From Eledone cirrhosa (taxonomy: Eukaryota): a stretch of 64,000 nucleotides of DNA. The position numbers and the translations under genes are program-made. Location: NCBI GenBank assembly GCA_964016885.1, contig CAXHJY010001150.1, positions 124,001-188,000 on the forward strand, in the 5' to 3' direction. The notes below the pieces were generated by a model that saw only the letters and a list, made by a program, of their open reading frames with translations, ran no database searches and was not told the DNA's origin. Shown one piece after another: positions 1-45,063 of the stretch (the first letter of the stretch is position 1; each line of letters starts with the position of its first letter).

Positions 1-3000
1 TCCCCCGTCTAACCTTCCCCCGTCTAACCTTTCTCCCGTCTAACCATTCCCCCGTCTAACCTCTCCCCCGTCTAACCTTTCCTCCGCCTAACCTTTCCCC
101 CGTCTAACCTTTCCCCCGCCTAACCTTTCCCCCGTCTAACCTTTCCCCCGTCTAACCTTCCCCCGTCTAACCTTTCTCCCGTCTAACCATTCCCCCGTCT
201 AACCTTTCCCCCGTCTAACCTTTCCCCCGTCTAACCTTTCTCCCGTCTAACCATTCCCCCGTCTAACCTTTCCCCCGTCTAACCTTTCCCCCGTCTAACC
301 TTTCCCCCGCCTAACCTTTCTCCCGTCTAACCATTCCCCCGTCTAACCTTTCCCCCGTCTAACCTTTCCCCCGTCTAACCTTTCCCCCGTCTAACCTTCC
401 CCCGTCTAACCTTTCTCCCGTCTAACCATTCCCCCGTCTAACCTTTCCCCCGTCTAACCTTTCCCCCGTCTAACCTTTCTCCCGTCTAACCATTCCCCCG
501 TCTAACCTTTCCCCCGTCTAACCTTTCCCCCGTCTAACCTTTCTCCCGTCTAACCATTCCCCCGTCTAACCTTTCCCCCGTCTAACCTTTCCCCCGTCTA
601 ACCTTTCCCCCGTCTAACCTTTCCCCCGCCTAACCTTTCTCCCGTCTAACCATTCCCCCGTCTAACCTCTCCCCCGTCTAACCTTTCCTCCGCCTAACCT
701 TTCCCCCGTCTAACCTTTCTCCCGTCTAACCATTCCCCCGTCTAACCTTTCCCCCGTCTAACCTTTCTCCCGTCTAACCATTCCCCCGTCTAACCTTTCC
801 CCCGTCTAACCTTTCCCCCGTCTAACCTTTCCCCCGCCTAACCTTTCCCCCGTCTAACCTTTCCCCCGTCTAACCTTTCCCCCGCCTAACCTTTCCCCCG
901 TCTAACCTTTCCCCCGTCTAACCTTCCCCCGTCTAACCTTTCTCCCGTCTAACCATTCCCCCGTCTAACCTTTCCCCCGTCTAACCTTTCCCCCGCCTAA
1001 CCTTTCCCCAGTCTAACCTTTCCTCTGCCTAACCATTCCCCCGTCTAACCTTTCCTCTGCCTAACCATTCCCCAGTCTAACCTTTCCTCTGCCTAACCAT
1101 TCCCCCGTCTAACCTTTCCTCTGCCTAACCATTCCCCCGTCTAACCTTTCCCCCGTCTAACCTTTCCTCTGCCTAACCTTTCCCCCGTCTAACCTTTCCT
1201 CCGTCTAACCTCTCCCCCGTCTAACCTTTCCTCTGCCTAACCATTCCCCCGTCTAACCTTTCCCCCGTCTAACCTTTCCTCTGCCTAACCTTTCCCCCGT
1301 CTAACCTTTCCTCTGCCTAACCTTTCCCCCGTCTAACCTTTCCTCCGTCTAACCTCTCCCCCGTCTAACCTTTCCTCTGCCTAACCATTCCCCCGTCTAA
1401 CCTTTCCCCCGTCTAACCTTTCCTCTGCCTAACCTTTCCTCCGTCTAACCTCTCCCCCGTCTAACCTTTCCCCCGTCTAACCTTTCCTCCGTCTAACCTC
1501 TCCCCCGTCTAACCTTTCCTCTGCCTAACCATTCCCCCGTCTAACCTTTCCCCCGTCTAACCTTTCCTCTGCCTAACCTTTCCCCCGTCTAACCTTTCCT
1601 CTGCCTAACCTTTCCCCCGTCTAACCTTTTCTCCGTCTAACCTCACCCCCGTCTACCCTTTCCTCTGCCTAACCATTCCCCCGTCTAACCTTTCCTCTGC
1701 CTAACCATTCCCCCGTCTAACCTTTCCTCTGCCTAACCATTCCCCCGTCTAACCTTTCCTCTGCCTAACCTTTCCCCCGTCTAACCTTTCCTCTGCCTAA
1801 CCATTCCCCCGTCTAACCTTTCCCCCGTCTAACCTTTCCTCCGTCTAACCTCTCCCCCGTCTAACCTTTCCTCTGCCTAACCTTTCCCCCGTCTAACCTT
1901 TCCTCTGCCTAACCATTCCCCCGTCTAACCTTTCCCCCGTCTAACCTTTCCTCCGTCTAACCTTTCCCCCGTCTAACCTTTCCTCTGCCTAACCTTTCCC
2001 CCGTCTAACCTTTCCTCCGTCTAACCTCTCCCCCGTCTAACCTTTCCTCTGCCTAACCATTCCCCCGTCTAACCTTTCCCCCGTCTAACCTTTCCTCTGC
2101 CTAACCTTTCCTCCGTCTAACCTCTCCCCCGTCTAACCTTTCCTCTGCCTAACCTTTCCCCCGTCTAACCTTTCCTCTGCCTAACCTTTCCTCTGCCTAA
2201 CCTTTCCCCCGTCTAACCTTTCCTCTGCCTAACCTTTCCTCTGCCTAACCTTTCCCCCGTCTAACCTTTCCTCTGCCTAACCTTTCCTCTGCCTAACCAT
2301 TCCCCCGTCTAACCTTTCCCCCGTCTAACCTTTCCTCTGCCTAACCTTTCCTCTGCCTAACCATTCCCCCGTCTAACCTTTCCCCCGTCTAACCTTTCCT
2401 CTGCCTAACCTTTCCCCCGTCTAACCTTTCCTCTGCCTAACCTTTCCCCCGTCTAACCTTTCCTCCGTCTAACCTCTCCCCCGTCTAACCTTTCCTCTGC
2501 CTAACCATTCCCCCGTCTAACCTTTCCCCCGTGTAACCTTTCCTCTGCCTAACCTTTCCTCCGTCTAACCTCTCCCCCGTCTAACCTTTCCTCTGCCTAA
2601 CCTTTCCCCCGTCTAACCTTTCCTCTGCCTAACCTTTCCTCTGCCTAACCTTTCCCCCGTCTAACCTTTCCTCTGCCTAACCTTTCCCCAGTCTAACCTT
2701 TCCCCCGTCTAACCTTTCCTCCGTCTAACCTCTCCCCCGTCTAACCTTTCCTCTGCCTAACCATTCCCCCGTCTAACCTTTCCCCCGTCTAACCTTTCCT
2801 CTGCCTAACCTTTCCCCAGTCTAACCTTTCCCCCGTCTAACCTTTCCTCCGTCTAACCTCTCCCCCGTCTAACCTTTCCTCTGCCTAACCATTCCCCCGT
2901 CTAACCTTTCCCCCGTCTAACCTTTCCTCTGCCTAACCTTTCCCCCGTCTAACCTTTCCTCTGCCTAACCTTTCCCCCGTCTAACCTTTCCTCCGTCTAA

Positions 3001-3060
3001 CCTCTCCCCCGTCTAACCTCTCCCCCGTCTAACCTCTCCCCCGCCTAACCTTTCCTCCGT
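1..3060. repeat. 16-bp C-rich tandem satellite (consensus AACCTTTCCCCCGTCT), telomere-like CTAACC core
   Basis: Continuous ~190 units running off the window start. Variants CATTCCCCCGT, TTTCTCCCGT and TTTCCTCTGCC; the last appears only after ~1010. Confidence 0.95.
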
Positions 3061-3264
3061 CCAACCCACCAAGCTAACCATCTATCATCCACCCATCAAT
3101 ATCTACCCAACCATTCAACCATCAATCCACCCCCAACCCATCCATACATCTAATCCCCATCCACTCCCCCGCCACACTTCCTCCTCCCTTCATCTATTGA
3201 GTTACTATTTTTTTTTTTCATCTTTCTTTTTCTTTCTCTTTTTCATTTTCTCCATTCACAACTG

Positions 3265-4435
3265 AACTCTCACCACTCCCAAACTCCCACCACGCTCATC
3301 ACTCCCAACCCAACTCCCACCACTCCCACAACTCCTACAACTCACACCACTCCCAACTCATCTCCCACCACTCCCAACTCAACTCTCACCACTCCCAAAC
3401 TCCCACCACGCTCATCACTCCCAACCCAACTCCCACCACTCCCACAACTCCTACAACTCACACCACTCCCAACTCATCTCCCACCACTCCCAACTCAACT
3501 CTCACCACTCCCAAACTCCCACCACGCTCATCACTCCCAACCCAACTCCCACCACTCCCACAACTCCTACAACTCACACCACTCCCAACTCATCTCCCAC
3601 CACTCCCAACTCAACTCTCACCACTCCCAAACTCCCACCACGCTCATCACTCCCAACCCAACTCCCACCACTCCCACAACTCCTACAACTCCTACAACTC
3701 CCACCACTCCCAACTCATCTCCCACCACTCCCAACTCAACTCTCACCACTCCCAAACTCCCACCACGCTCATCACTCCCAACCCAACTCCCACCACTCCC
3801 ACCACTCCCACAACTCCTACAACTCCCACCACTCCCAACTCATCTCCCACCACTCCCAAACTCCCACCACGCTCATCACTCCCAACTCAACTCCCACCAC
3901 TCCCACAACTCCTACAACTCCCACCACTCCCAACTCATCTCCCACCACTCCCACCACTCCCACCACTCCCACCATCCCCACGACTCCCACAACTCCCACC
4001 ACTCCTAACTCAACTCCTACCGCTCCCAACTCAACTCCCACTACTCGCACCACTCCCACCACTCGCACCACTCCCACCACTCCCACCACTCCCAACTCAA
4101 CTCACACCACTCTCAACTCAACTCCAACCACTCACAACTCCACTCCCACCACTCCTACCACTCCTAACTCAACTCCCACTACTCCCAACTCAACTCCCAC
4201 TACTCCCACCACTCCCACAACTCCCACAACTCCCAACTCAATTCCCACCACTCACACCACTTTCAACTCAACTCCCACCACTCCCAACTCAACTCTCACT
4301 ACTCCCACTACTCCCACCACTCCCACAACTCCCACAACTCCCAACTCAACTCCCACCACTCCTAACTCAACTCACCACTCCCACCACTCCAACCACTCCC
4401 AACTCAACTCCCACCACTCTCACCTCAACTCTACT
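3265..4435. repeat. C/A-rich repeat built of ACTCCC/ACC subunits with a 116-bp higher-order unit that decays rightwards
   Basis: AACTCTCACCACTCCCAAACTCC recurs at 3265, 3381, 3497 and 3613 (116-bp spacing), then at 3738. Confidence 0.9.
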
Positions 4436-4654
4436 TCAATATATAACAAATACATTTGTCCTCTTGGCCCCTTCCAGCTCCTTATGTGTAGATTGTGACC
4501 TCCTCTACATCGGTTAACCTCATCACCATCATACGTATCTTTTGGGGAGGATGGTTCTTTTACGATCAACTACCCAGAAGAAGTTCGTCAACAGGTATAT
4601 AGGAATGCCATAACCTTCAGGACTATATCCAACGCAACAAGAAAGCCAGCTCAA

Positions 4655-5932
4655 ATGACAGAAAGTCAATTGACAGAAAGTCAAATTGAGCTGGTTCTGA
4701 AAGACATAAAAAAAGACATACGCTTTATTGAAAGAGGAAAGCTGTATGCCAGCATTATGGTCCGAATGAAGGACGAAATGCTGGCTCAAAAATGCTCGGT
4801 GGCACCTATAGTGTCACCACAATACACCTTCTTCCCTACATATAAAGGAAGAAGAACACAAAGACTAAGAATGTGGAGCTCAACGCCAGAAGTAAACATC
4901 TGGTCCGTCCTGACAGGATTCACGGACCTAGAAAAGGACATCCTAATATCAGCAGGTGAGTCCACCCGTGGACTGTTCGGGGGGGGGGGGGGGGGAAGTC
5001 TGGAGCTTCTCTTACAGATGACACCTGAGAGAATCGCCGGAATACCCGACCGAGTACTACTGGATGGTCGAACCTTTATTAATATTACGGTGGAAGGTCA
5101 CCTGAGGACTGCCTGCCCTCTACTAACAACAAAAAAAACACTTCTACAAACACCACAACAACAACAAAAACAACCAGCACTACCACCACAAAAACAACAA
5201 AATACACCACCATCACCACCACCACCACAACGACAACAAAAACCAACAACACCACCTCCAGCACCACCACCACAACAACAACAGCTCAAGATAACAACCC
5301 CAAAACACGGTCCCACAGAACACAAATACAAAAACACACGCAGTGCATACACAACCTGGCAATATACCCCTCCCCTCCAATACGGAAGAGGAGCTCATAT
5401 CTTCGGAAGACGAGGGGGCTCCCTTCCAAAAAGTCAAAAGGAAAAAACGTACACACCACACAAACAAAAATAACCCCACCTGACAACACAACACAGACAA
5501 CAAAACGCAAGCTCACTCAAGAACAACAAGCAAAAACAAACACAACAACACAAAAACTCTACACATACATAAACAAAAACAATAAAAACTTAACAGAAAA
5601 AATAGACAACAACCCTTCGGTTTGTACCGAAGGGCCGAATTTTGCAATGGCAATGGGACTCCCTAACCTGAAAATGGTGAAAGTCCCACTTGACATTTTC
5701 AAAACATTGAAAAACATTTACCCTGAGGACGTGGGGCCACCCTGCACCAGGCCACTCAACCGCGACCTCCTGAAAGGTTTTCCCATCCTCAAACACCCAC
5801 ACAATTCCAAACACCCCAACCCCTCCACACACTAATACCCCCACACCACCACAAATAACCACCCCACCCAACAACCCCTCCACCACCCCCATGGAAACTG
5901 AGCAGCCCGGACCCCGGGACGCAGAGAGGTAA
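4655..5932 (+). pseudogene. LINE ORF1 (gag-like), disrupted
   Basis: 272-aa ORF with a half zinc knuckle (ITVEGHLRTACP) and a Pro/Gln/Thr-rich linker. Fragments continue to METEQPGPRDAER-TAA (5891-5932), just upstream of the ORF2 ATG. Confidence 0.65.
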
Positions 5933-5955
5933 GTGCCTCTTTCTTTACCACCAAC

Positions 5956-8900
5956 ATGGCTGTGTTAAGAGTAGGTTGTCTAAATGCGCGTGGCCTGGGC
6001 TCACCTTGGAAGCAAGCTAAACTTCTAAATGACCTCAGGTCACGATGTATAAATGTGATGGTTATTTGCGAGGCCCGGATCAGCAGCGTGCGACAGCTAG
6101 CCCACCACCTTTGATGACTTTGAGATGCACGCATCTCTCTGTCAGCCCGGAGATGGGGGTGGGGTTGTCGTTCTGCTTCAAAAACATCTGGGTCTCGCTA
6201 CTCAAACGGTACACTTGGACCCGGAGGGTCGACTCGTGGTTCTGGACCTTGGCAGTGGTGAAGGCGAAGCTTTTAGGCTTGTCGCCGTTTACGCCCCTTT
6301 TGGAGCAATGCGGTCGGACTTCTTCCATCGTCTGGAGACTTTTCTAGGGACGTCCCGCTCCTTGCTTTTAGTGGGGTACTGGAATGGTTTCCTAGATGCA
6401 CGTTGGGACTATGTAGGGGCATGTCCCGATAGAGGGGGGTGTAACAGCCTCAAGGGGTTAATCGGCCGATTTGATCTGGCCGATAGATATCGACTAGATT
6501 TTCCGACTGTGCCAACCTGGACTTGAACAAATCATAGCAGCCAATCTAGATCGTACCTAGATAGGTTCTTAGTTAGAATTAAGGATTGGGACTTTTTAAG
6601 TTGTCCAGAAATTCTCATGGTGGGCTATTCAGACCACAAGTTAGTGACCTGCGTAGTCCACCTTGATAGAACGCATAGGCAGGGACCCGGTTACTGGAAG
6701 CTCAACTTGTCCTTACCGGCAAGTAGAGCTTACAGGGACCGGATTAGAACCTTAGTTAAGGAGCGGTTGACGGGCGTCATCGTCAACAGCAGGTGGTGGG
6801 GCTCTCTAAAAAGAGAGATTAGAGTAGTTTCAATAGGAGTTAGTAAGGAGTTAGCCTCAGATAGAAATAGGAAGGAAAGGGAGTTGGTAGTTAATGTTGA
6901 AGAGGCAATGAGAAGCGGCAACGTGGCCAGAGTGCAAGCGTCGAGAACGGCCTTGAGCCAGTTCTTCGACGCGAAACACGAAGGCTGCGTTGTCCGAAGC
7001 AAAATACGTGCTCTGGGAAACGAGGGGACCAAAGCTGTTAGCTGGACCCGCGTGACAGAAGCCAAAAGTGGGATTAGATCCACTATCCGGTCTTTGCGAG
7101 ACCAGGATGGACGGGTGATCCTTGAACCTAAGCAAATGTGCGAGGCCTTTCAAAGGCGCTGTGCCCGATTGTTCAGGAGGGGAGGGGGGCCGGTTGGAGA
7201 TGTGGATTTCGGTCCATACCTCGACGGCCTGCCGCGTCTTTCGGACAAGGAGGCTAGGTCCTGCGACGGGCCGATCTCAGCTGCTGAAATAGGAGACGTG
7301 CTGAGCCTATGCGGCAAACGCAAATCTCCAGGGCTCGATGGTCTGCTCTACGAACTATATATTAATATGCCGGACTTGTTCCCCGATCTCCTCGAGGCGG
7401 TCTACTGCAACTGGCAACAGAACGGGTGAATTCCCTGTTCTGTGACCAAGGGCGTAGTCTCGCTAGTGAGGAAGGACGAGAACAAGGGGGATGACATTAG
7501 TAATTTTAGGCCCATAACTCTGCTAAATGCAGAGTTAAAGATTTTGGCCAAGGTGTTAGCGAAGAGGTTGGCGCTTGTCGTGGGGGGCCTGGTGGGAGAT
7601 GCGCAGACATGCGCTATCCCGTCCAGGTCCATCCACGACAACCTCCACCTCAGGCGATACATCATAGAGAGGGTTGGGAACGAACCCGGCTTTGGTGGGG
7701 CCCTGATAAATTTAGATCAGTCTAAAGCGTTCGATAGGGTGGACCATGGTTACCTGGATGCGATGCTAGCGGCGGCTGGTTTCGGACCCGTTTCAGGGGC
7801 TGGATCACTGCCATGCACAGCAACCGCATCTGCTCTAGAGTCAAGGTGAACGGCTACCTCTCGGAGCCGTTCGAAATCACCCGCTCCATCCAACAGGGGT
7901 GCCCTCTCTCCTCCCTTCTGTATGTATTGGCTCTCGAGCCACTACTGCGGAAGTTGGAGTTGTTGCAGGGCATCCCTTTGGAACCGGGATTGCGCAAAGC
8001 GGTGTCGGCCTACGCCGATGACGTAACAGTTATGGTGTCGACCACCGCGGAAATCGAGGCAATCGGCACCTTACTGGAGGAGTACGAAAGGTTGACAGGG
8101 GCTAAGCTGAACCGGGACAAGTCAGTCGCTTTGCAATTCGGCGAGTGGAGGGGCAAAGCGATGCCCTCCGATTGCGTCGTCGGACGCCGGACGGAGGGCC
8201 CGGTGAAGTTGCTTGGGGTCTGGCTCGGACTGGACCTCCAGGTGGAGAAAAACTGGAGTGAGGTGACGAATAGGGTGTTTGCACTGACCCAGAAGTGAGC
8301 CGAGTGCAAACTATCCCTGAAAGGTCGGGCGGAGGTGGCGAACGCTTACATAGCGTCCGTCATCTATTACCGCTTGACTATCGTGCCTTGCCCGAGTGAG
8401 ATCCTCGCCAAAATGGAGCGCGCCCTCTTTTATTTCCTTTGGAAGAAGAGGTCTCCTCTGGTGAGGAGATCCATCTGCTGTCAACACCCTTTGAAAGGAG
8501 GGCTGGGGATGCCGTGGCTAAAAATGCGTAAACACGCATTGAGGCTAAGGCCCCTCCAGGTATTCCTCACCGGTCAACCGGTGTGGGCTCCGTTTGTGAG
8601 GCGAGCCTTCCCGAGGCTCGTCTCGCTCACCGAGCTGCAGTCCTGGGTGAAGCAAAGACCGAGAAAACTGGGCGACTGGCACACCGAGTGTGCCCAGGCG
8701 CTCACGGCTCTCTGACAGGCGGACCCGGCTATCCATGGAGACTCCACCTCGTCATTCTATAGAGGGCTGGTGGTTAGTAGGTGCGACGACGCCCTCGGAG
8801 AAGCCCTAGGCATGGAGGAGGACGAACTGGCCAGTCTATTCGGTAGGACTTTCGGCCCGGGACCTATGGACAACTTCCAGAAGTCCTTGGCCTGGCAGTG

Positions 8901-9395
8901 CTACCGAGGGGCTCTGCCCGTTCGGGATAAGCTCTACAGACACGGGCGCCGGGGTAGGGGGACCCCTCGAAAAAGATCTGTCCCAGATGCGTGCGCGACG
9001 AGGAAACCGTCGCGCACGCATTGGTGCACTGCCCGGGCGTTGCCGATCTGTGGGGCTATGTCGAACAACTGCTGTCACGGGTGGGACCAATTAGGTTGAT
9101 CACCGAATCCATTGTAACGATCAAGCCGCCTCCCCCCTTCAAAAATGAAGGAGAGGCGGTCTTCCTCTGTGTAATAGCCATGGTAAAAGAGGTTATATGG
9201 TGGACGCGTCTGAAAGGGCTGAGGTCGGACACCTTTCTCTCCGGCCAACAACTGGTCCTTTTCTTCCGATACCATTTCGGAAGAAGGATCAGGATGGAGA
9301 GAGAGGTGCTCCACTCCAGCCAGTTTTATGAAAGGTGGGTGAAAGTTGCGAGAATGGCCCGTGTGAATAGGCCTTCTCTCTACCTCAGCCTGTAG
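5956..9395 (+). pseudogene. LINE ORF2: apurinic endonuclease + reverse transcriptase + C-terminal Cys/His motif, with stops and frameshifts
   Basis: Starts MAVLRVGCLNARGL at 5956. APE: GRLVVLD, AVYAP, SDHKLV, GPGYWKLN. RT: KSPGLDGL, NFRPITLLNAELKILAK, DQSKAFDRVDH, QGCPLS, AYADD. C-terminus: CPRC..EETVAHALVHC. In-frame TGA at 6524, 7427, 8296 and 8713; frameshifts near 6110, 7790 and 8970. Confidence 0.93.
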
Positions 9396-9984
9396 GTGGA
9401 AAAGGAAGAAGGGAGCACCCTCTCTTTGTGCTCCCGTGGAGAAGGGTCGCACATTTTTTTCGGGGGTGTGTGTGACCCCAAAACGATCCCTCCCTATTGA
9501 GGACCTTCTTGTTAAAATTTTACTTATTACATTTTTCTTACTCGATTTTTATGTAAACTCCCCCCACCCATGTACATGTCCCTTTCTTTTGTGCCCTAGT
9601 GGCAAATAAACAGAAATTTGTCTGTCTAGCTATCTGTCCGTCTCTCTGTCCGCCTGTCTGTCTGCTTCCCTGTCATAAGCTTGCTTGCTTTACACTTCAC
9701 TCAATTACATGCCACACTCCAGTTTCTTTCATAACTTTTACTCCATTCATCTACCTTCCTTCGCCATGTCATTCAGCCCAGCAGCCATTTGTCTATTTAT
9801 TTATTTAATTATTTAGCTATTTATTTATTTGGCTGGTTGGTTGTGTGTTGTGTGTTATGTGTTGTGTGTTGTGTGTTGTTATGTTTTACTTTGTTTTCTA
9901 TAGTATGCCTCTGTGGTTGTGCATTTCTTTTCAGGTTTTTTCAAGGAAAAAAATCCGAATATCCATCACAATACACACACAAGT

Positions 9985-15349: not shown

Positions 15350-15804
<455 letters not shown>

Positions 15805-16109
15805 TTGTAACGTCCAGTTACTGTAGGTTCACCACAGTGAGCATTCGATCCGTAGATTCCAGAGTCGGGCTAGATCGATATAGATCGAACTTGAGCTGAT
15901 CGATAGCCAAACGCGCGTCACTAAATAAACGTAATGAAGACATAACAAATCGTCCTTTTATATATATTTCCGTTCAGAAATAGCTGTCGAAACGGCCGGA
16001 GCTCAACCGTCGGGGTCATGACTCTTTTCCTATTACCCACTCTACTACCCATAGTATCGAGTATTCGGGTGCGTTATTGTCCACCTGGTTCCTTACCACA
16101 CTTCCTTCG

Positions 16110-16221
<112 letters not shown>

Positions 16222-16278
16222 CGAAGGAAGTGTGGTAAGGAACCAGGTGGACAATAACGCACCCGAATACTCGATACT

Positions 16279-17097
16279 ATGGGTAGTAGTGATAAAATTA
16301 TGTACATAGATAATGATAAACAAATTAAACAAAATAACAACTATTTTAATTATGGCCACAACCTTAACAACTATAATAGAAAGCATTACAATAATTCCAA
16401 AAGCCATAAAAGAAATAGAACTAGGAATATAATATGGTTTGCCCCCCCCCCTTTCTCACTAGACATTGGAACCCACATTGCTGAACTATTTTTTGAAGCT
16501 CTCGATGGTCGCTTCCCTAGAGCACATGGGTGTCACTCAATTTTCAATAGACATGCTGTAGAACTAACCTACTCATCCACCGGAGATTTGGCGCAGGGTG
16601 TTAATAGAATAAATAGCGGGAACTTGGAACCTAGCGATAATGGCATAGGTGGTGTCCAAGTTGGCGGGTGTAACTGTGGGGATAGATCTGAGTGTCCGTT
16701 AAATAACAGCTGCTTAGTTAAAAGTGTGATGTACAACTGTGGTGTTAAAACGGACGTTGGTTCTTTTGGCTACGTTGGTTCTACATCGACGGAATTTGGA
16801 CTTCGCTATAACAACCACAAGAATTCTTTCACAGATCCATCCAGGGAATCTTCAACAGCACTGTCAGGCGTACTCTGGCAACTTGGGCGTGGTAACGTTG
16901 GATATTCGACGACTTGGGGTGTGGTTTCAGGGGGGATTCCTTTTGATTCATCCTCTGGGACATGTGACCTCTGTGCGGGGGAGATGTTCTTTATACTAAG
17001 ATCTAGGGGTTCCCTTGGTCTACGGACAGGTTTGTTCGGTTGCTGCAGACGTAGATTGAACTCAACGTTTGAATATAAATTTAAATTTAAAATGTAA
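16279..17097 (+). pseudogene. PLE C-terminal GIY-YIG endonuclease region (Naiad-like), apparently A-to-G hypermutated
   Basis: [54 protein letters not shown]. Gly/Arg occur where sister copies have Lys/Asn/His. Confidence 0.88.
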
Positions 17098-18378
17098 TTA
17101 TGTTTGTTTTGATTTGATTTGTAGTTGTTTATGAAGCTGGCCGATAAATCTTTCGATTTCTTCTTTTTATTAAAACATTCTTTTTATTAAAACATTCTTC
17201 ATGGGTGGTTGGGCTGCCCTAAAGGCTGATGCTCCAGATATATCGAATTAGGTTTTAAACTAGATAAACTTCTATATTATATGTAGGAACATATGTAGAC
17301 CAGGTGGGTATCCTGGGCTTTTGGAGTGATTTCTGCTAGACAGGATTTGGTAAACAATTTTTGTTTTATCTGTTTCGACTCTGATGCTTATGATGATCTT
17401 GGCAATATGTTGTCAGTTAACTTTGAAAGGCTGATCTCTGTGTTTTATTTGTATTATTTTTTAATATTTTGTAATATTTTTTATTTTTAATATTAAATGT
17501 TTTAGTTTTCTGTTTATTTATTTATTTATTTTCTTGTCTCTGATATTTTTATTTTTATTTTTATTCTTATTTTTATTAATATATTGAAATCTGTTCTCTA
17601 TTTCTGCTTGATCGACAATCAGGTAGAATAAAGACAAGAATAGTATTGTTAAAATTAATATAAACTCTATATATATATGTGTATATATACACACATATAT
17701 GTATACTTGAATTTTTATAGCACAATGAGAATGTTTTCGTGTGAATTGGGAGTTTGTTTATAATTATGATATAAACATATGAATTTTTAAAAACTAGACA
17801 TAAGATCATTACTTTTCACACATTATAGATACATGTCTCATTCATGAATACTGGTACTTACATTATAATGCCTGTTTTATACGAACTAATATTTTCTACG
17901 GATAAAACATAGCGGTTTTAAATTCTGCATCGTTTATGTCTGGTTATGTTTCATTTTCTCTTTTTCATTTTCTCTTTTTTTCTCTCTATATAACGGCTAT
18001 TTTCTCTCTTAACTACATACATCTCTCTTTGCATTAATACTAGAGCTAAATAAATAAATAAATAAATAAATAAATGTATCAACCGATACTCAACTTCCTA
18101 ATTTCTCTATCTATCTCTATCTATCTCTTTCTTTTTTCCTCTCTCTATATATATTTCTCTCTGTTTCTTTACATGAAGTTCTTCTCTTTATCTATCTTTC
18201 TATATCCCTCTATTTAGTCACATGCATTTCTTCTTTTTCTTCGTTTCTCTTTCTTTCTCTCTTTATCTCTTTCTTTTTACAACTGTCCACAATATTTTTT
18301 ACTACCAAATCAACATCCCAAATGCAAGGTGATTGAAAGGTATGTCGTATCTATTTATTTATAAGACTGTTTATATTG

Positions 18379-18444
18379 TATTTTGTCTGAAGATGGCATA
18401 ACATATTGTTAATATGATATCCCTGAAATATATATAACGAAATA
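18379..18444 (+). ncRNA. Type I hammerhead ribozyme motif (family B)
   Basis: Stem I TATTTTGT/ACGAAATA, CTGAAGA at 18387, stem II CATATT/AATATG, GAAA at 18425, palindromic ATATATAT, cleavage-site TA. Confidence 0.8.
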
Positions 18445-18586
18445 AATATGGTTTTATAAATATAGTTTCCATTTATTTAATATCATAAATATACTCCAAA
18501 TACTTGTTGAGTGCTTTTATATCAGTTATAAATATTTACTCGTTGTTAACCCAACAATTTAAATATAACTTTCCATGTATAAATAT

Positions 18587-18625
<39 letters not shown>

Positions 18626-19353
18626 AATATTATACTCTTGATTTGGCCTGAGATGAATATTTCCAGATACCTTTTAAGCGTAACTTTCCGTATTTATTAT
18701 TACTATGAAATATTGATTGTTATTCTGGTATCACATCTCTGTTTTTAGCCTGAGAAAATACCTATATGTATGTATAAATAATGCATGCATATATTTATTT
18801 TTTAAAAATCTAATTGAGTTCTTCACACGCAAGGTTAAAATTGTTGAAAAAATTAATTGACCCGCGTGTATATTATTTTACATTCGTATGTTTCGCGATG
18901 ACCTCCCCTTTCCGCTTGATGACAGATTGAAATTTTTCATTCTGAGACTGCTGGAATTTCAAATTTGGCGGACATTTTGATACGGAGAGGACCATCGCTA
19001 ACATGGGAATGGACATCGGTAAGAAGGTTTTTTTTATATCGATGTTTAACGGGCATCCACTGATGATTTATAAGTGCCCACCTGCATATATTCCTACGGA
19101 ATGTGTGCAGGCTTCTACATAACCTGGACACATTCTCCCAACTTGTAGAAAACTTATAATGAAAAAATTGTTTGGAAAGGGAGATATATTTTAATTATGT
19201 CTCATATAAAATAATACAACTGGCTTTCCGCAAAATACATATAGTTAGCACCCCAAACGTAAAATTGGGATTATACTAAGGTATATCCTAATGTTTGTTG
19301 AGTGAGATGGAAGCCAGTCAGAGTATAGCTTACAGCTTTCTCTGTTAATGTGT

Positions 19354-19397
<44 letters not shown>

Positions 19398-19419
19398 GTA
19401 TAATAAACAATACAATATA

Positions 19420-19495
19420 ATTACCTCATTACCAGAGATTTCCCGAATACGACGAATACAAGAAACGTCCTCATTCGTTCGTCAGACAAGGCAAT
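19420..19495 (-). ncRNA. Type I hammerhead ribozyme motif (family C) in the 3' pLTR of a minus-strand PLE
   Basis: Minus strand reads ATTGCCTTGT-CTGACGA-stem II-GAAA-TCTCTGG-TA-ATGAGGTAAT. Inverted near-copy of 24265-24340. Confidence 0.8.
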
Positions 19496-20149
19496 TTAAA
19501 ACATAGTGAAATATTTGAAAAACCTCCTCAAGAAAGGCAAAAGTTTAACGGGCAAAAAAAAAAAAAAAAAAATTATATAAATAAAAGTAATGCAAGAGAT
19601 ATATAAAAATAAAATAAGGAAATATAGTAAGGGTATGTGTATAAATGTGTGTATATACACCTACAAATGTACATATGTGTGTATGTACAGTACAAATGCA
19701 TGTGTATAGTGAAAAAATGTGTGCGTAAGTACATACATGAGGGCAAGCATATCAGTGTATGTCTGACCACAAATACGTATATAATATATGTTGAAAAAAG
19801 AAATTGTAAGATAATAGAGTTAGCGTACATACAGACTCGGGGACTAGGGATTGAAATATATACACATACAAGTATGAAAACACGCGTATAAACACACACA
19901 CACGCGCAACCACATACATGTATGTGATATATACAGGGAAGGGAGTGTATCAGTCAAAGCAGTGTCAGGCTGAAGGTCGATTCAGATATAAAAAATGAAA
20001 ATGAAAAAATATATGAGAATAAAAAAATTAAATCAAGGAGAAAGTAAGAGGGAGGGGTTATCAATTATAAAGTAACACTAGAAAAAATAAATAAAAAGTA
20101 GAAAACATACGGAGGTTCGTACGCACATATATATATATATATAAATATA

Positions 20150-21897
20150 CAATATATTAATAAATGGAAACTACATTTATAAAACCATATTTATTTTATT
20201 ATATATATTTCAAGGGCAACCAAGGCAAATTATGGTGCGCTTTCATCAGATAAAATACAGATTTGTTTTATAAATAAATAAATATTGACATACCCGGAAA
20301 AAAAGCCAACCTTAACGGTTGGAGCTTCCTGGATAGTGGAGATAATATTTTATTGAGGGTAATACAAAGTTATGAGTGAGTATGCAAATGAGTGTCCGAA
20401 AAGTTGAAAAGATAACGGTTTATTTAAATTAAACTGTTGGAAGAAGAGGATATGTAAGGGAGAGAGAACAAAAGGAAGGAGAAAGAGAGAAGAAGAAACA
20501 AAGAACGATTATACATAGTGATAGTGAAGATAGTGAAGAGTGAACGAAGAAATAAATATTAATGGAAGAATATAGATATATCTAAGTGAAAGAAGAAGTG
20601 AAAGAAGAAATAAGATTAACGTGGAAGAATAATATTTAGAAAGTAGGGTTCATTACGTTGTGATTATAATATTTATAAGTTGAAAAATTAGATTAAAATT
20701 AAAAAATTAGATTAAAATTAAAAATTAAAAATCAAAATTAAAGATTAAAATTTACTTTAATAATAAAAATTTAATTTAATATTAATATTAAAATTAAAAA
20801 TTAAAATTAAAACAGAAGTATTTATATTATATTAAGATGTATTATTAATAATATATTGGTTTAGATGTGTATGTTATGGATTATAAATTATTTAAATGTA
20901 TAGTATTTTACATTAGAGAAAATCTAGTATAGTTTATTAGATTAAAGTAAGTTTGGCAAAATTATATTTATTAATAGTTGTAAGTCAAAACTTAAACATC
21001 CAAATAATTCCAAATTTATGAATATTTACGAGAGTTTACAAAGGAATAACTACTTAATTAGATTATAAAAACAGTAAGGAAGTATAAAGGAAGTTAGAAG
21101 TGATTTTTTAAGAACTCAAATGACTCCAAGGATACATAAAAAAAACTTTAAAAACATTTTTAAAAACATTTTTATGAGAAGTCATAAATGTTATAAAGTT
21201 AAAATTTTATCATAAGAATATAATTAAAACATAAACCATATGTTATTTTATAAGAAGTTATAAATTTATCTTAAGAATATAATTAAAACATAAACCATAT
21301 GTTATTTTATAAGAAGTCATAAATTTATCTTAAGAATATAATTAAAACATAAACCATAGGTTATTCCACATATATATAAAAATCATATGTCATTCCACAT
21401 ATATATAAGTATTTGGATATATATTAAAAATGTTTGAAAATATAAAATATTGGAAGATATGAAAATAATGGTTTTTCCATATCTTTCAAAGGAACTTTCA
21501 AAGGATTTACCAAGAATTTTCTAAAACCTTCAGAAAGTCTATCAAGGAAAATTTTTCTTAAAAGAATTTCAAGTAGTCATATTCTTAAAAGAATTTCAAG
21601 TATATTTATGAAATAGAGATAATAGAAAATAAATTAAATATATATGAAACATATATAGATATAATCTGAGGGATGAAGTTGTAGGTAGTTGGATATTGAA
21701 AACGTTATGTAAAGGAGATTAACCATATATTACATTTTATATATATCTAAAAGTTGAGTTTAAACGATGTTTACAAGAAGTAAATAAATTATTACGCAAA
21801 TTAATAGAGTTCTTACTTTTTAGTATAAAAAATATTTCTTCAACGCAAATTTTTAAGCTTGTTGAATCCCAACAAATTAAATATAACCTCTGCATAT
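20150..21897 (-). mobile_element. Nested 3' fragment of a family-B PLE
   Basis: C-terminus [37 protein letters not shown] (21737-21850), AT-rich UTR, hammerhead at 20192 and an inverted tail at 21850-21897. Confidence 0.75.
20192..20257 (-). ncRNA. Type I hammerhead ribozyme motif (family B)
   Basis: Minus strand reads TATTTTAT-CTGATGA-AAGCGCACC..GGTTGCCCTT-GAAA-TATATA-TA-ATAAAATA. Confidence 0.8.
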
Positions 21898-22872: not shown

Positions 22873-24200
22873 TTATGGAGGATAAGTATCTGAAAGTGAG
22901 TTAAATTTATATGAGCTGGAAAGCAAGTGTAATTTCATGTGTGGGCAACTGGTGAAAATTTCTGATTTTGCATTTAGGCAGGTTTTTGGTGATTTAAGGT
23001 TCTGTAAAATCCAATATTTTTCACTTATGCAGAGTGTGCATCTTCTTGTTCCGCTTGCATATTCTTTAGATTGGTTCAAAATTGACCAATCTAATTTATA
23101 TTGGATACCTTGGTCTTTCAAATCCCATATTCTGCTAGCCAGAGCTGTTGTAAATCTTTTTTTCAGGATGTCGGAAAGATGCGACATGTGAGTAATAACG
23201 CGTTTTGAATTTGTCTTGTGTCATACACACATATCGTTCGCTGGTGGCTGGTAGGTTGTTGCTGGTGGTTGTCACTTTAGCCGCATATACAATGGCTTTG
23301 GTGTTGCATTTACCTTGTAATGGGCATTCACTTTTGACTCTACAGGAGCAATTTTGATGTTCTCTGGGTATTTTCTTATTGAGGATATAAGATTTAATAG
23401 GGGGACTGCAGGAGTAGCTCATTTTGACACAGTTTCTATTGAAGATCTTATAGTATCTATGTGTTCTAGGGAAATATTTATCTAAGAGCTCTAGGAATTT
23501 TTTGCCTACATTAGTTTTAACTGCTAAAGAGTAGGGGTGTGTGAACCAGATTATTTTTCTTTTCCTATTATTATGTTTAAAGGAGTTAGTATTGTTGGGT
23601 ATGTACTTAATCGGTTCGCCAAATCCGCTATTTTGAAGGGCTTTATTATAGTAGGGGGATGCCTTATTGAAAATAGCTTCTGAGGAAGAGAGGGTGGAGA
23701 TCCTACGGCTAATATTAGGGATAAGATTTTTAAAAACTATAGGAGGATGGCAAGAGCCTTTATTTATATATTTTAAATTTTCATTAGGTTTATAAGAAGC
23801 AATAGGCAGATCTAGGTTTATATCTAGAAAATTAACATTAGAAGGTTAGTGTCAATGGTAATTTTAAGATTAAAACTAGCGAAGGTTTTTATTAAGTCTT
23901 TCCTGAATCTAAGTTATGGCCTATAGTGGTATGGGAAAGTATTAGACCATCGTCACGATAAAGCCCAAAGGTATGATTAGGGAATTTTTCTTTAAGTGTG
24001 TGTAGGAGGAACAGGCCGACTAAATCACACACGTCAGCACTGTCAAAAGAACCCATTGAGACATCGAATGGGTTCTCTGGGCTAGATTTTTTTACCCAAG
24101 TGTCACTATTAGTAAATAGTAAAGTGTTTCTAGCATTCAAAATGACATTCTCTTCAATATCAGAAATATTGATAAACTTTCTAGCGAAATTTAATGCTTT
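22873..24200 (-). pseudogene. PLE RT + GIY-YIG ORF remnant (frameshifted)
   Basis: FDVSMGSFDSADVCDLVGLFLL, GLYRDDGL, CSCRVKSECPLQGKC, FKTRYYSH, TALASRIWDLK, CTLCISEK, CPH. Confidence 0.92.
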
Positions 24201-24264
24201 TTTTTTGCCCGTTAAACTTTTGCCTTTCTTGAGGAGATTTTTCAAATATTTCACTATGTTTTAA

Positions 24265-24340
24265 ATTGCCTTGTCTGACGAACGAATGAGGACGTTTCTT
24301 GTATTCGTCTTATTCGGGAAACCTCTGGTAATGAGGTAAT
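24265..24340 (+). ncRNA. Type I hammerhead ribozyme motif (family C) in the inverted pLTR
   Basis: 10-bp stem I ATTGCCTTGT/ATGAGGTAAT (with G-U pairs), CTGACGA at 24275, stem II CGAATGAGGACG/CGTCTTATTCG, GAAA at 24318, stem III ACC-TCT-GGT. Predicted cleavage after A24330. Confidence 0.85.
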
Positions 24341-24454
24341 TATATTGTATTGTCTATTATGTATTAAATTTAGCTCTGTAACTTACAAAGAGCACTCTTC
24401 ACTCTATGACTTTTTCAATTTTCAACGAAAACTTCAATAACCCCCCCCCCCTCC

Positions 24455-44000: not shown

Positions 44001-45063
44001 TTAGCTGTATACTTTGTGAAAAGTCTTATGGAATTTATGCAAGCAGATAGAAAACAAATCTGTACGTCTATTTATTATAGAATCTAGATTAGAGATAATG
44101 GTAAATTTTTCATTTAGGCAGAGATTACAGATTTTAGATAGAGAGCTGTTCAAGTATGAAGACGCAGAAGAAACCTTCTTCCAAAAGATGGTATATTTAA
44201 TGTTTTTGTCTTTCAAGGACCATATGAGTTCTGAGAGAGCCGTGTTGGTTCTTTTAAGTTTGTATTTAAAAGATGAATGATGATTATAGAGACGAGCTTT
44301 AAAAGAGGTGGAAGTGGAGCCAAAATAGGTGAAGGAATTGGTGCTAGTTATAACTTTACATTCATAAATTAAGTTTTTATCAAGACAATGGTTGTTGAGA
44401 GGACATTTATTTTTAATGCGGCAGTTACAATTAGAGAGATTATTAGTGAGTGACCTAGTGTTATCTATAGAAGGAATTGGATTGGAGAAGTTGTTTGCGA
44501 TAGGAATAATAGTTTCTTGATTTAGAGTTGGATTATGAACATTTAGCGAAGTTGTGTTTGACGTTGTATTTGGGTTTACAGAAATTAGCCTAGGGTTTAC
44601 AATGACGTCGGGAGTACTATTACTGTTATTATGAAATTCAGTGTTGGAAGGAAGAGATTTAGTATTTAGTATTTTATTGTTGTGTTTAGAGATAATTGTT
44701 TCTACTTTAGGCACAAGGCCAGCAATTATCCAGTGCATTACTGGTACTTTATTTTATCGACCCCGTAAGGATGAAAGGCAAAGTCAACCTCGGCGGGATT
44801 TGAACTCAGATCGTAAAGGGACGTAACTATGCTGGAAAGCGTGGCGTCCGACCCTCTACCGATACTGCCAATCCACAGCACAGTTGTGTTTAGAGATAAT
44901 GTTGGAAATATTGGAGGATGTAGAATAAGAAAATTTTATGGTGTGTTTGTTAAATATTTTACTATAGATATGTGAGGGAGGGAAGCATTTATTTAAGGCA
45001 CTAAAGAATAATTTAGGAATATTGTTATTAATAGAGATGGAGAAAGGAGCATTATACCAGATT
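44001..45063 (-). pseudogene. PLE GIY-YIG region, interrupted by a SINE
   Basis: WYNAPFS..KIFNKHTIKFSYS..ISKHN|NKILNTK..CNCRIKNKCPL..C..IYEC..YFGSTSTSFKARLYNH..TALSELIW..CNLCLNEK..CLH. Confidence 0.92.
44697..44882 (-). mobile_element. Complete SINE insertion (Nin/Deu-like core) with 18-bp TSD
   Basis: TSD GTTGTGTTTAGAGATAAT at 44679-44696 and 44883-44900; B-box GTTCAAATCC on the minus strand. Removing it restores the PLE reading frame. Confidence 0.88.

Follow-up and report, generated by a model that had tools for sequence, protein, structure and literature searches.

Genomic copies of a Penelope-like element in Eledone cirrhosa that were probably written back from hyper-edited RNA

Editing of adenosine to inosine (A-to-I) has been connected with retroelements in several ways. 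A>G hypermutation of the avian retroviruses RAV-1 and ALV was attributed to ADAR (Felder 1994; Hajjar and Linial 1995, as cited in PMC2790459), and the same paper cites Drosophila mdg1 subfamilies (Nurminsky 1993) for ADARs targeting transposable elements. Lizard Penelope RNA is massively hyper-edited (Porath 2017, PMC5625713), ultra-edited expressed sequence tags were reported (PMC3197674), and a survey of sequence traces treats A>G clusters as RNA editing (PMC2873906). In genomic DNA, APOBEC G>A scars are known from long terminal repeat (LTR) retrotransposons of vertebrates; the sections consulted of that survey, which covers LTR elements only, give other cluster types as negligible and 19 invertebrate genomes as devoid (Knisbacher and Levanon, PMC4866542). 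Here we describe a copy of a Penelope-like element of the Hydra clade in a 64,000-nucleotide stretch of Eledone cirrhosa contig CAXHJY010001150.1 (genome 3.0 Gb), called the window below, whose positions are used as coordinates. The copy contains a dense one-way tract of A>G changes. It very probably derives from element RNA that was hyper-edited by ADAR while paired with a long putative antisense RNA and then retrotransposed, with inosines copied to G. We base this reading on the bounded spectrum confined to one direction and one strand, ADAR-type neighbours, short reads, 15 independent loci, edits shared between inverted arms and a near-fixed 5' edge.

As in RAV-1 and ALV, clustered A>G changes appear to have been recorded after reverse transcription of edited RNA. 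Unlike those exogenous viruses, the case concerns an endogenous retrotransposon of non-LTR type, with many independent copies, about 4% of the family affected and a near-fixed edge. Like the scars of APOBEC-edited LTR elements, these would be host deaminase scars fixed in genomic copies, biased to the sense strand and polarised against the subfamily; however, APOBEC scars are G>A and come from C-to-U changes on complementary DNA, while the changes here are A>G, would arise at the RNA stage and affect a Penelope-like element. The lizard case is similar in that the transcripts are heavy ADAR substrates with G depleted upstream, but it is at the RNA level only, and the sections consulted describe no write-back into DNA. 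The mdg1 subfamilies, known here from the citation, possibly hold early A>G changes in a genomic retrotransposon copy and may reduce the novelty of our finding. In the literature searched there was no paper on genomic or germline retrotransposon copies fixed from ADAR-edited RNA, although one may sit in subscription papers or supplements.

Polarity was set by the majority of 29 family copies from the same genome. Between 16462 and 17416 (955 bases), 109 of 347 A are changed to G, while T>C was found at 0/323, C>T at 0/161 and G>A at 1/123 positions, and no A>C or A>T is present relative to the family majority. The sole G>A (17097) is a family polymorphism, since 11 of the 29 copies have the same letter. 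G occurs in no family copy at 102 of the 109 edited sites and in one copy at the other seven; full alignments with the 29 copies give 104-113 differences of the type family A, window G. Outside the tract A is spared, with 0/79 changed in 16287-16461 and 1/340 in 17417-18570 (Fisher p 8e-12 and 1e-35). These counts bear out the A>G excess of the initial annotation, which had seen an apparent ADAR fossil here from the letters alone, and its unedited, A-rich upstream part; its bounds (16440..17430) are corrected. Adjacent A are edited together (AA pairs: GG 31, AG 23, GA 16, AA 67; p 7e-6). For 16480-17100, 39 full-length matches at 87% identity were obtained among the 40 scored of 1661 candidates. 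No other copy has the same G set and the spectrum is not symmetric. At 16546, a further family A within the tract, one contig of short-read run X2 (depth 10.2) has G and run X1 has A, which may reflect a second allele or a contig error.

The tract includes 320 bases of the 3' untranslated region (UTR), and within it 55 of 211 codons are altered. A conserved endonuclease Asn became Gly and, as the initial annotation had stated, the His of the CxH motif became Arg (17051). Purifying selection on the edits was rejected, as 10/57 synonymous and 73/185 non-synonymous sites are edited. LGRGNVGY is an edited product as had been proposed, but its parent is LRHDNVRY and not LKDKNIKY/LKDQGIQY, because the copies at 21737, 22873 and 44001 taken as references belong to distant families (21727-21841 is 74% identical), and some of the listed residue changes are not real. 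Distant relatives of GIY-YIG type are present at 21727-21841 (74% DNA identity over 116 bases) and 44001-44753 (41% protein identity). The open reading frame (ORF) is open, as claimed, but it is a remnant of 269 codons that lacks the reverse transcriptase (RT) domain, so the copy was dead on arrival regardless of its edits.

Other edited copies were found by degenerate patterns with fixed G, and every locus found this way and examined proved edited; the 3' UTR pattern matched the window copy only. The scan yielded 14 hyper-edited loci besides the window, 15 in all, which sit near three subfamily majorities, L100, L103 and L111 being more distant. Positions in the element (ref) follow a natural full-length copy, the reverse complement of L044:3001-7400, with its ORF at about ref 564-2776; window positions 16287, 16462 and 17416 correspond to ref 1969, 2141 and 3094. 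Pooled over the 15 loci in ref 2208-2770, at positions invariant in the three subfamilies, the spectrum is A>G 1016/2626, T>C 16/2082, G>A 4/852 and C>T 19/1185, without the G>A clusters of APOBEC-edited retroelements. The share of A changed ranges from 31 to 52%, and neighbouring elements and flanks are untouched (4/201 in the neighbour of L102). All 105 pairs of edited copies differ at 23 sites or more; the edits shared by two copies have a median of 0.63 of the smaller set and a maximum of 14/16, the latter against a copy with half its A changed. As every pair is distinct, the copies record separate editing events and none looks descended from another; the diversification route for the elements that had been suggested thus finds no support among these pairs.

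A 35-base motif with A/G left free has 303 matches. With G fixed at its UAG site there are 13, all in verified edited loci and three outside the first pattern; about 4% of the copies that bear the motif (13/306) are therefore edited, which is a rough minimum. On contig C1 all 45 loci were counted, with a bimodal outcome: one is edited (65/255), and the other 44 each have no more than 4 A>G among some 335 sites. This census included no locus edited in the RT region alone and no T>C clusters. Two patterns for antisense-strand editing had no match; every edit lies on the sense strand. Five loci whose motif has one G variant were rejected as unedited subfamily members, one further single-G locus is likewise unedited, and a seeming A>G excess in the arm of L046 is a microsatellite.

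ADARs prefer 5' neighbours in the order A=U>C>G and can modify as much as 50% of A (PMC2790459), and G is depleted upstream and enriched downstream of their sites (PMC4365171). In the window tract, edited sites by 5' neighbour are T 42/109 (.39), A 55/138 (.40), C 6/51 (.12) and G 6/49 (.12), so that A or T (W) is favoured over C or G (S) with p 2e-7, a bias that the initial annotation had anticipated. Pooled A>G rates are 0.51, 0.43, 0.25 and 0.16 after T, A, C and G, and 0.54, 0.42, 0.34 and 0.32 before G, A, C and T. Pooled, A followed by G is changed at 135/250 sites versus 788/2109 for other 3' neighbours, and W-A-G exceeds W-A-H (H, not G) per site (14 vs 135 sites, p 0.008). TAG is the highest triplet (73/112, 0.65) and GAT the lowest (6/123, 0.05). 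Four places in the host genome match PF02137 and are by this domain deaminase loci of ADAR type; one of them has the motifs HAE, PCG and SCSDK.

Many insertions of the family are head-to-head and pair a long copy with an inverted arm of lesser length. The overlap of the two arms contains edits in five edited loci, and there every sense-strand edit is common to both arms (162/162; 27, 19, 10, 78 and 28 per locus); in two further edited loci the overlap is without edits. Where both 3' ends were read the tail is on one arm and not the other, and in L067 it is the short arm that has the tail and the long copy that lacks it, so neither arm can be wholly copied from the other. The shared edits and this tail arrangement indicate that both arms most likely go back to a single RNA, edited beforehand and primed at two places, and that editing most likely preceded reverse transcription. 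A Penelope protein cleaves and extends both DNA strands and starts internally (PMC11167929), which is consistent with two-site priming. The element's own inverted pseudo-LTRs (pLTRs) had been proposed as the source of double-stranded RNA (dsRNA), but the window copy has no inverted arm of itself and no antisense copy lies in the window. Since the arms elsewhere carry the same sense-strand edits, they were presumably made after editing; the inverted pLTR is a product of insertion, not the cause of editing, and was rejected as the source of the duplex.

Short-read contigs of runs X1 and X2 reproduce 16442-16723, 16859-16980 and 16951-17070 with 0-1 deviating letters and a depth of 9.9-11.8, and carry 67 of the 109 window edits; unedited family pieces have a depth of 380-2400. 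One identical dense pattern at about 10x points to DNA, as hyper-edited RNA molecules would be expected to differ from each other. X3 and X4 contigs left most of the tract uncovered, and three runs of restriction-site associated DNA (RAD) gave only partial reads of unedited relatives, with the tract uncovered.

The same observations bear on other explanations. Diversity-generating retroelements have adenine-specific mutagenic RTs. An element RT that misreads template A, through an error-prone mode or nucleotide imbalance, and inserts dC would give sense-strand A>G with no RNA editing, and would agree with the greater truncation within the tract in edited copies. It is nevertheless very unlikely. 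Only A>G is found, not the change of A to any base that marks mutagenic reverse transcription in diversity-generating retroelements and that is absent from the window tract. Moreover, two separately primed arms sharing 162/162 changes largely refute it, separate insertions have a common tract start with an RT that is accurate on either side of the tract, and misreading does not account for the UAG preference and 5' G avoidance. Error-prone gap filling of the polymerase eta type prefers W-A, and ADAR can act on DNA in hybrids. The 5' W preference could thus also come from such a polymerase, or adenine could have been deaminated in an RNA:DNA hybrid, at or after insertion. We give this very little credence, because arms on opposite genomic strands have the same sense-strand edits, 31-52% of A are altered without any other error class and with a 3' G preference, flanks and neighbouring elements are untouched, and the edge is fixed in element coordinates.

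Five loci share a lone A>G variant that marks a subfamily, but nothing was found in favour of reversed polarity or of membership in a G-rich subfamily. This reading is refuted by the three subfamily majorities, all with A, and by the separate G set of each edited copy; conserved residues are lost in the edited state, and the best matches among those scored are all at 87%, which leaves it hardly credible. In favour of an assembly or base-calling artefact, the contig that holds the window is small, X1-X3 are perhaps from the assembled sample and the RAD runs are uninformative. The 67 changes found in short-read contigs of two runs at depth of about 10, and the 14 more loci on large contigs, make an artefact extremely improbable. 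Write-back of hyper-edited RNA by retrotransposition, as the initial annotation had it, is strongly supported, and neither of the two outcomes that it had named as refuting was observed: the spectrum is one-directional and the G set recurs in no other copy.

Hyper-editing of a paired element RNA is also in line with the position of the tracts. Seven edited copies reach upstream, with tract starts at ref 2141, 2174, 2174, 2174, 2198 and 2207, and at 1717 in L114. Six of the seven fall within 67 bases (window-equivalent 16462-16528; p ~4e-5 under uniform starts), and upstream of this edge 0/70, 3/278, 0/111, 6/302, 4/421 and 4/183 A are changed. The shared edge leaves the RT region unedited. Right ends vary between ref ~2800 and 4100, and over the final 300 bases 0-7 of some 65 A are altered. 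The enzyme would be ADAR and the partner an antisense RNA in trans that ends near window 16460-16500; the element's RT would read inosines as G into DNA, probably in the germline, and a single RNA would be primed both at its pLTR end and at its tail end, which would yield the inverted arms. Around mismatches to the third subfamily (3 bases or less away), edits are scarcer than in shifted controls (z -2.9, 0/275; without direct neighbours z -2.05, 2/273); this does not hold for mismatches to the other two. The trials took in three partners and four windows, and the same sites come back in several copies. This weak footprint hints at a partner in trans.

Some features were observed near the edge. 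On the antisense strand, a donor-like TA|GTGAGA occurs in ref 2133-2147 (window 16454-16468), at a distance of two bases from the first window edit, and in three other copies a T6 run (ref 2168-2173) directly precedes the tract. Each of these two features is a possible mark of the partner's end. Among 53 copies or arms on C1 that are unedited, five (L130, L136, L142, L150 and L151) have their 5' truncation at ref 2210-2265, and 2047-2209 contains no such end; RT may stop just inside the edge. In one case, the inverted arm L034:5572-6190, an internal deletion joins ref 2147 to 3932, nearly exactly the interval edited elsewhere, and could be an RT jump over a removed or blocked duplex. Splicing was rejected for this deletion, as its junction has no splice dinucleotides on either strand.

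Several points weigh against an origin by antisense-guided ADAR editing. The case is known from genomic DNA alone. Neither a long self-complement within the element nor an antisense copy within the window was found, no partner locus emerged among 84 candidates, and with no AATAAA on the antisense strand at the edge, antisense polyadenylation there was rejected. L114 is an exception to the shared edge, with a tract (ref 1717-2815) that begins about 450 bases further upstream, in the RT thumb region. The 3' G preference does not reach significance in the window copy by itself (16/36 vs 93/311, p 0.09), and in invertebrates A, not G, is enriched downstream of edits (PMC5625713), which the family pattern fits only partly. 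ADAR1 restricts L1 without editing it, and a cell assay did not show editing of human L1 RNA by ADAR1 (PMC5224506). The identity of the arms could come in part from later gene conversion. Runs X1 and X2, whose kind is not on record, are from one sample, and X1-X3 may be the assembled sample.

The family is assigned by motifs and insertion structure to the Hydra clade of C-terminal endonuclease-positive Penelope-like elements. Marks of this clade are RWK-like and DKT motifs, a CxCx5C linker, CxxC and CxH around E and N, (TA)n targets, an inverted 5'-truncated arm and a tail at one end (Craig 2021, PMC8557442). The family inserts at (TA)n, with an inverted 5'-truncated arm and a tail at one end, and the protein P0001 has RWR (one residue off RWK), DKT, CNCRDRSKC, CDLC and CRH. 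The natural full-length copy L044 has a single ORF of 745 amino acids with RT-like motifs by eye and the C-terminal GIY-YIG endonuclease pattern IIY..YVG..R..H..E..N; 16 full-length homologues of the ORF were found at 33-39%, with PF26215 in 11 of them. Pfam (five window ORFs and two full ORFs) and PDB searches gave no match, and Rfam gave no hammerhead at E<=1. In the sections consulted of PMC8557442 editing is not described; the family also differs from the clade presented there by a 3' UTR of about 1.4 kb and a tail of 90 bases versus 30-40.

Table 1. Features of the window copy and its junctions (window positions)
Feature	Position	Strand	Remark
Hydra-clade Penelope-like element copy, 5'-truncated	16287..18576	+	2.3 kb of ~3.8 kb element
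A>G hyper-edited tract	16462..17416	+	109/347 A changed; no other private substitutions
C-terminal ORF remnant: linker, CxCx5C motif, GIY-YIG endonuclease	16288..17097	+	RT domain absent
5' segment free of edits	16287..16461	+	0/79 A changed; right end is the tract edge common to other edited copies
3' UTR / pLTR free of edits	17417..18486	+	1/340 A changed up to 18570
Hammerhead-like core motifs (CTGAAGA ... GAAA)	18387..18428	+	unedited; by eye; no Rfam match
90-nucleotide tail	18487..18576	+	in the family, on one arm only of inverted pairs
(TA)n, 3' junction	18578..18626	.	target of the family
5' junction	16042..16289	.	flank 16042-16109 (68 bases) duplicated in reverse at 16222-16289 around (TA)n

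At the 5' junction the reversed flank meets the element with a 3-base overlap (TAG). Outside the edited tract the copy has only 4 private substitutions, so the insertion is very young. An empty allele was sought through the 3' flank, which is itself a repeat, and no empty site was identified. Other repeats of the window include a perfect loop-less 87-base palindrome at 15350-15523, after (TA)n and within another repeat family, which resembles a Penelope-type fold-back junction. A frameshifted Penelope-like element of another kind lies on the minus strand, with ORFs at 22873-24260 and a 175-base inverted segment (19388-19562 and 24198-24372, 4.6 kb apart). A LINE-like element at 4499-9548 has endonuclease and RT frames interrupted by several stops.

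Heavily edited RNA still inserts, as the copies prove, and the element protein that it needs can come from another RNA. The 5' ends of 8 of 15 edited copies lie inside ref 2140-2545, versus 5 of 44 census loci (p 0.002); the two sets were collected in different ways and are not alike in subfamily composition. Their shares of full-length copies, 1/15 and 14/44, do not differ significantly (p 0.08). In 12 of 15 edited copies the conserved endonuclease Asn is altered. In L104, the only full-length edited copy, the RT is unedited and the endonuclease Tyr and Asn are changed, whose roles we presume by analogy. An ADAR-based defence, as in the initial annotation, is plausible and is hinted at by the truncation inside the tract and the altered Asn. 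We tentatively consider, as a possibility that is rather less than even, that a long-lived antisense RNA with a fragment of an older subfamily, ending near the start of the endonuclease linker, pairs in trans with the element's mRNA and has guided ADAR to the endonuclease-coding region in the germline through several subfamily waves. The progeny would be truncated and endonuclease-dead, and this would be an antisense-guided counterpart of APOBEC restriction, with the guide readable from the scars.

A-to-I editing, thought to be transient, appears in this family to mutate the genome recurrently, with about 4% of the copies affected. An edited RNA is a unique barcode, so that DNA alone can test the strand and number of RNAs behind each Penelope insertion, here one sense RNA for both arms, and the germline ADAR motif can be obtained from a genome assembly. 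The near-fixed edge would show where a germline antisense RNA pairs with the element, which is testable from DNA, and the excess of truncation inside the tract makes it testable whether dsRNA or inosine hampers retrotransposition.
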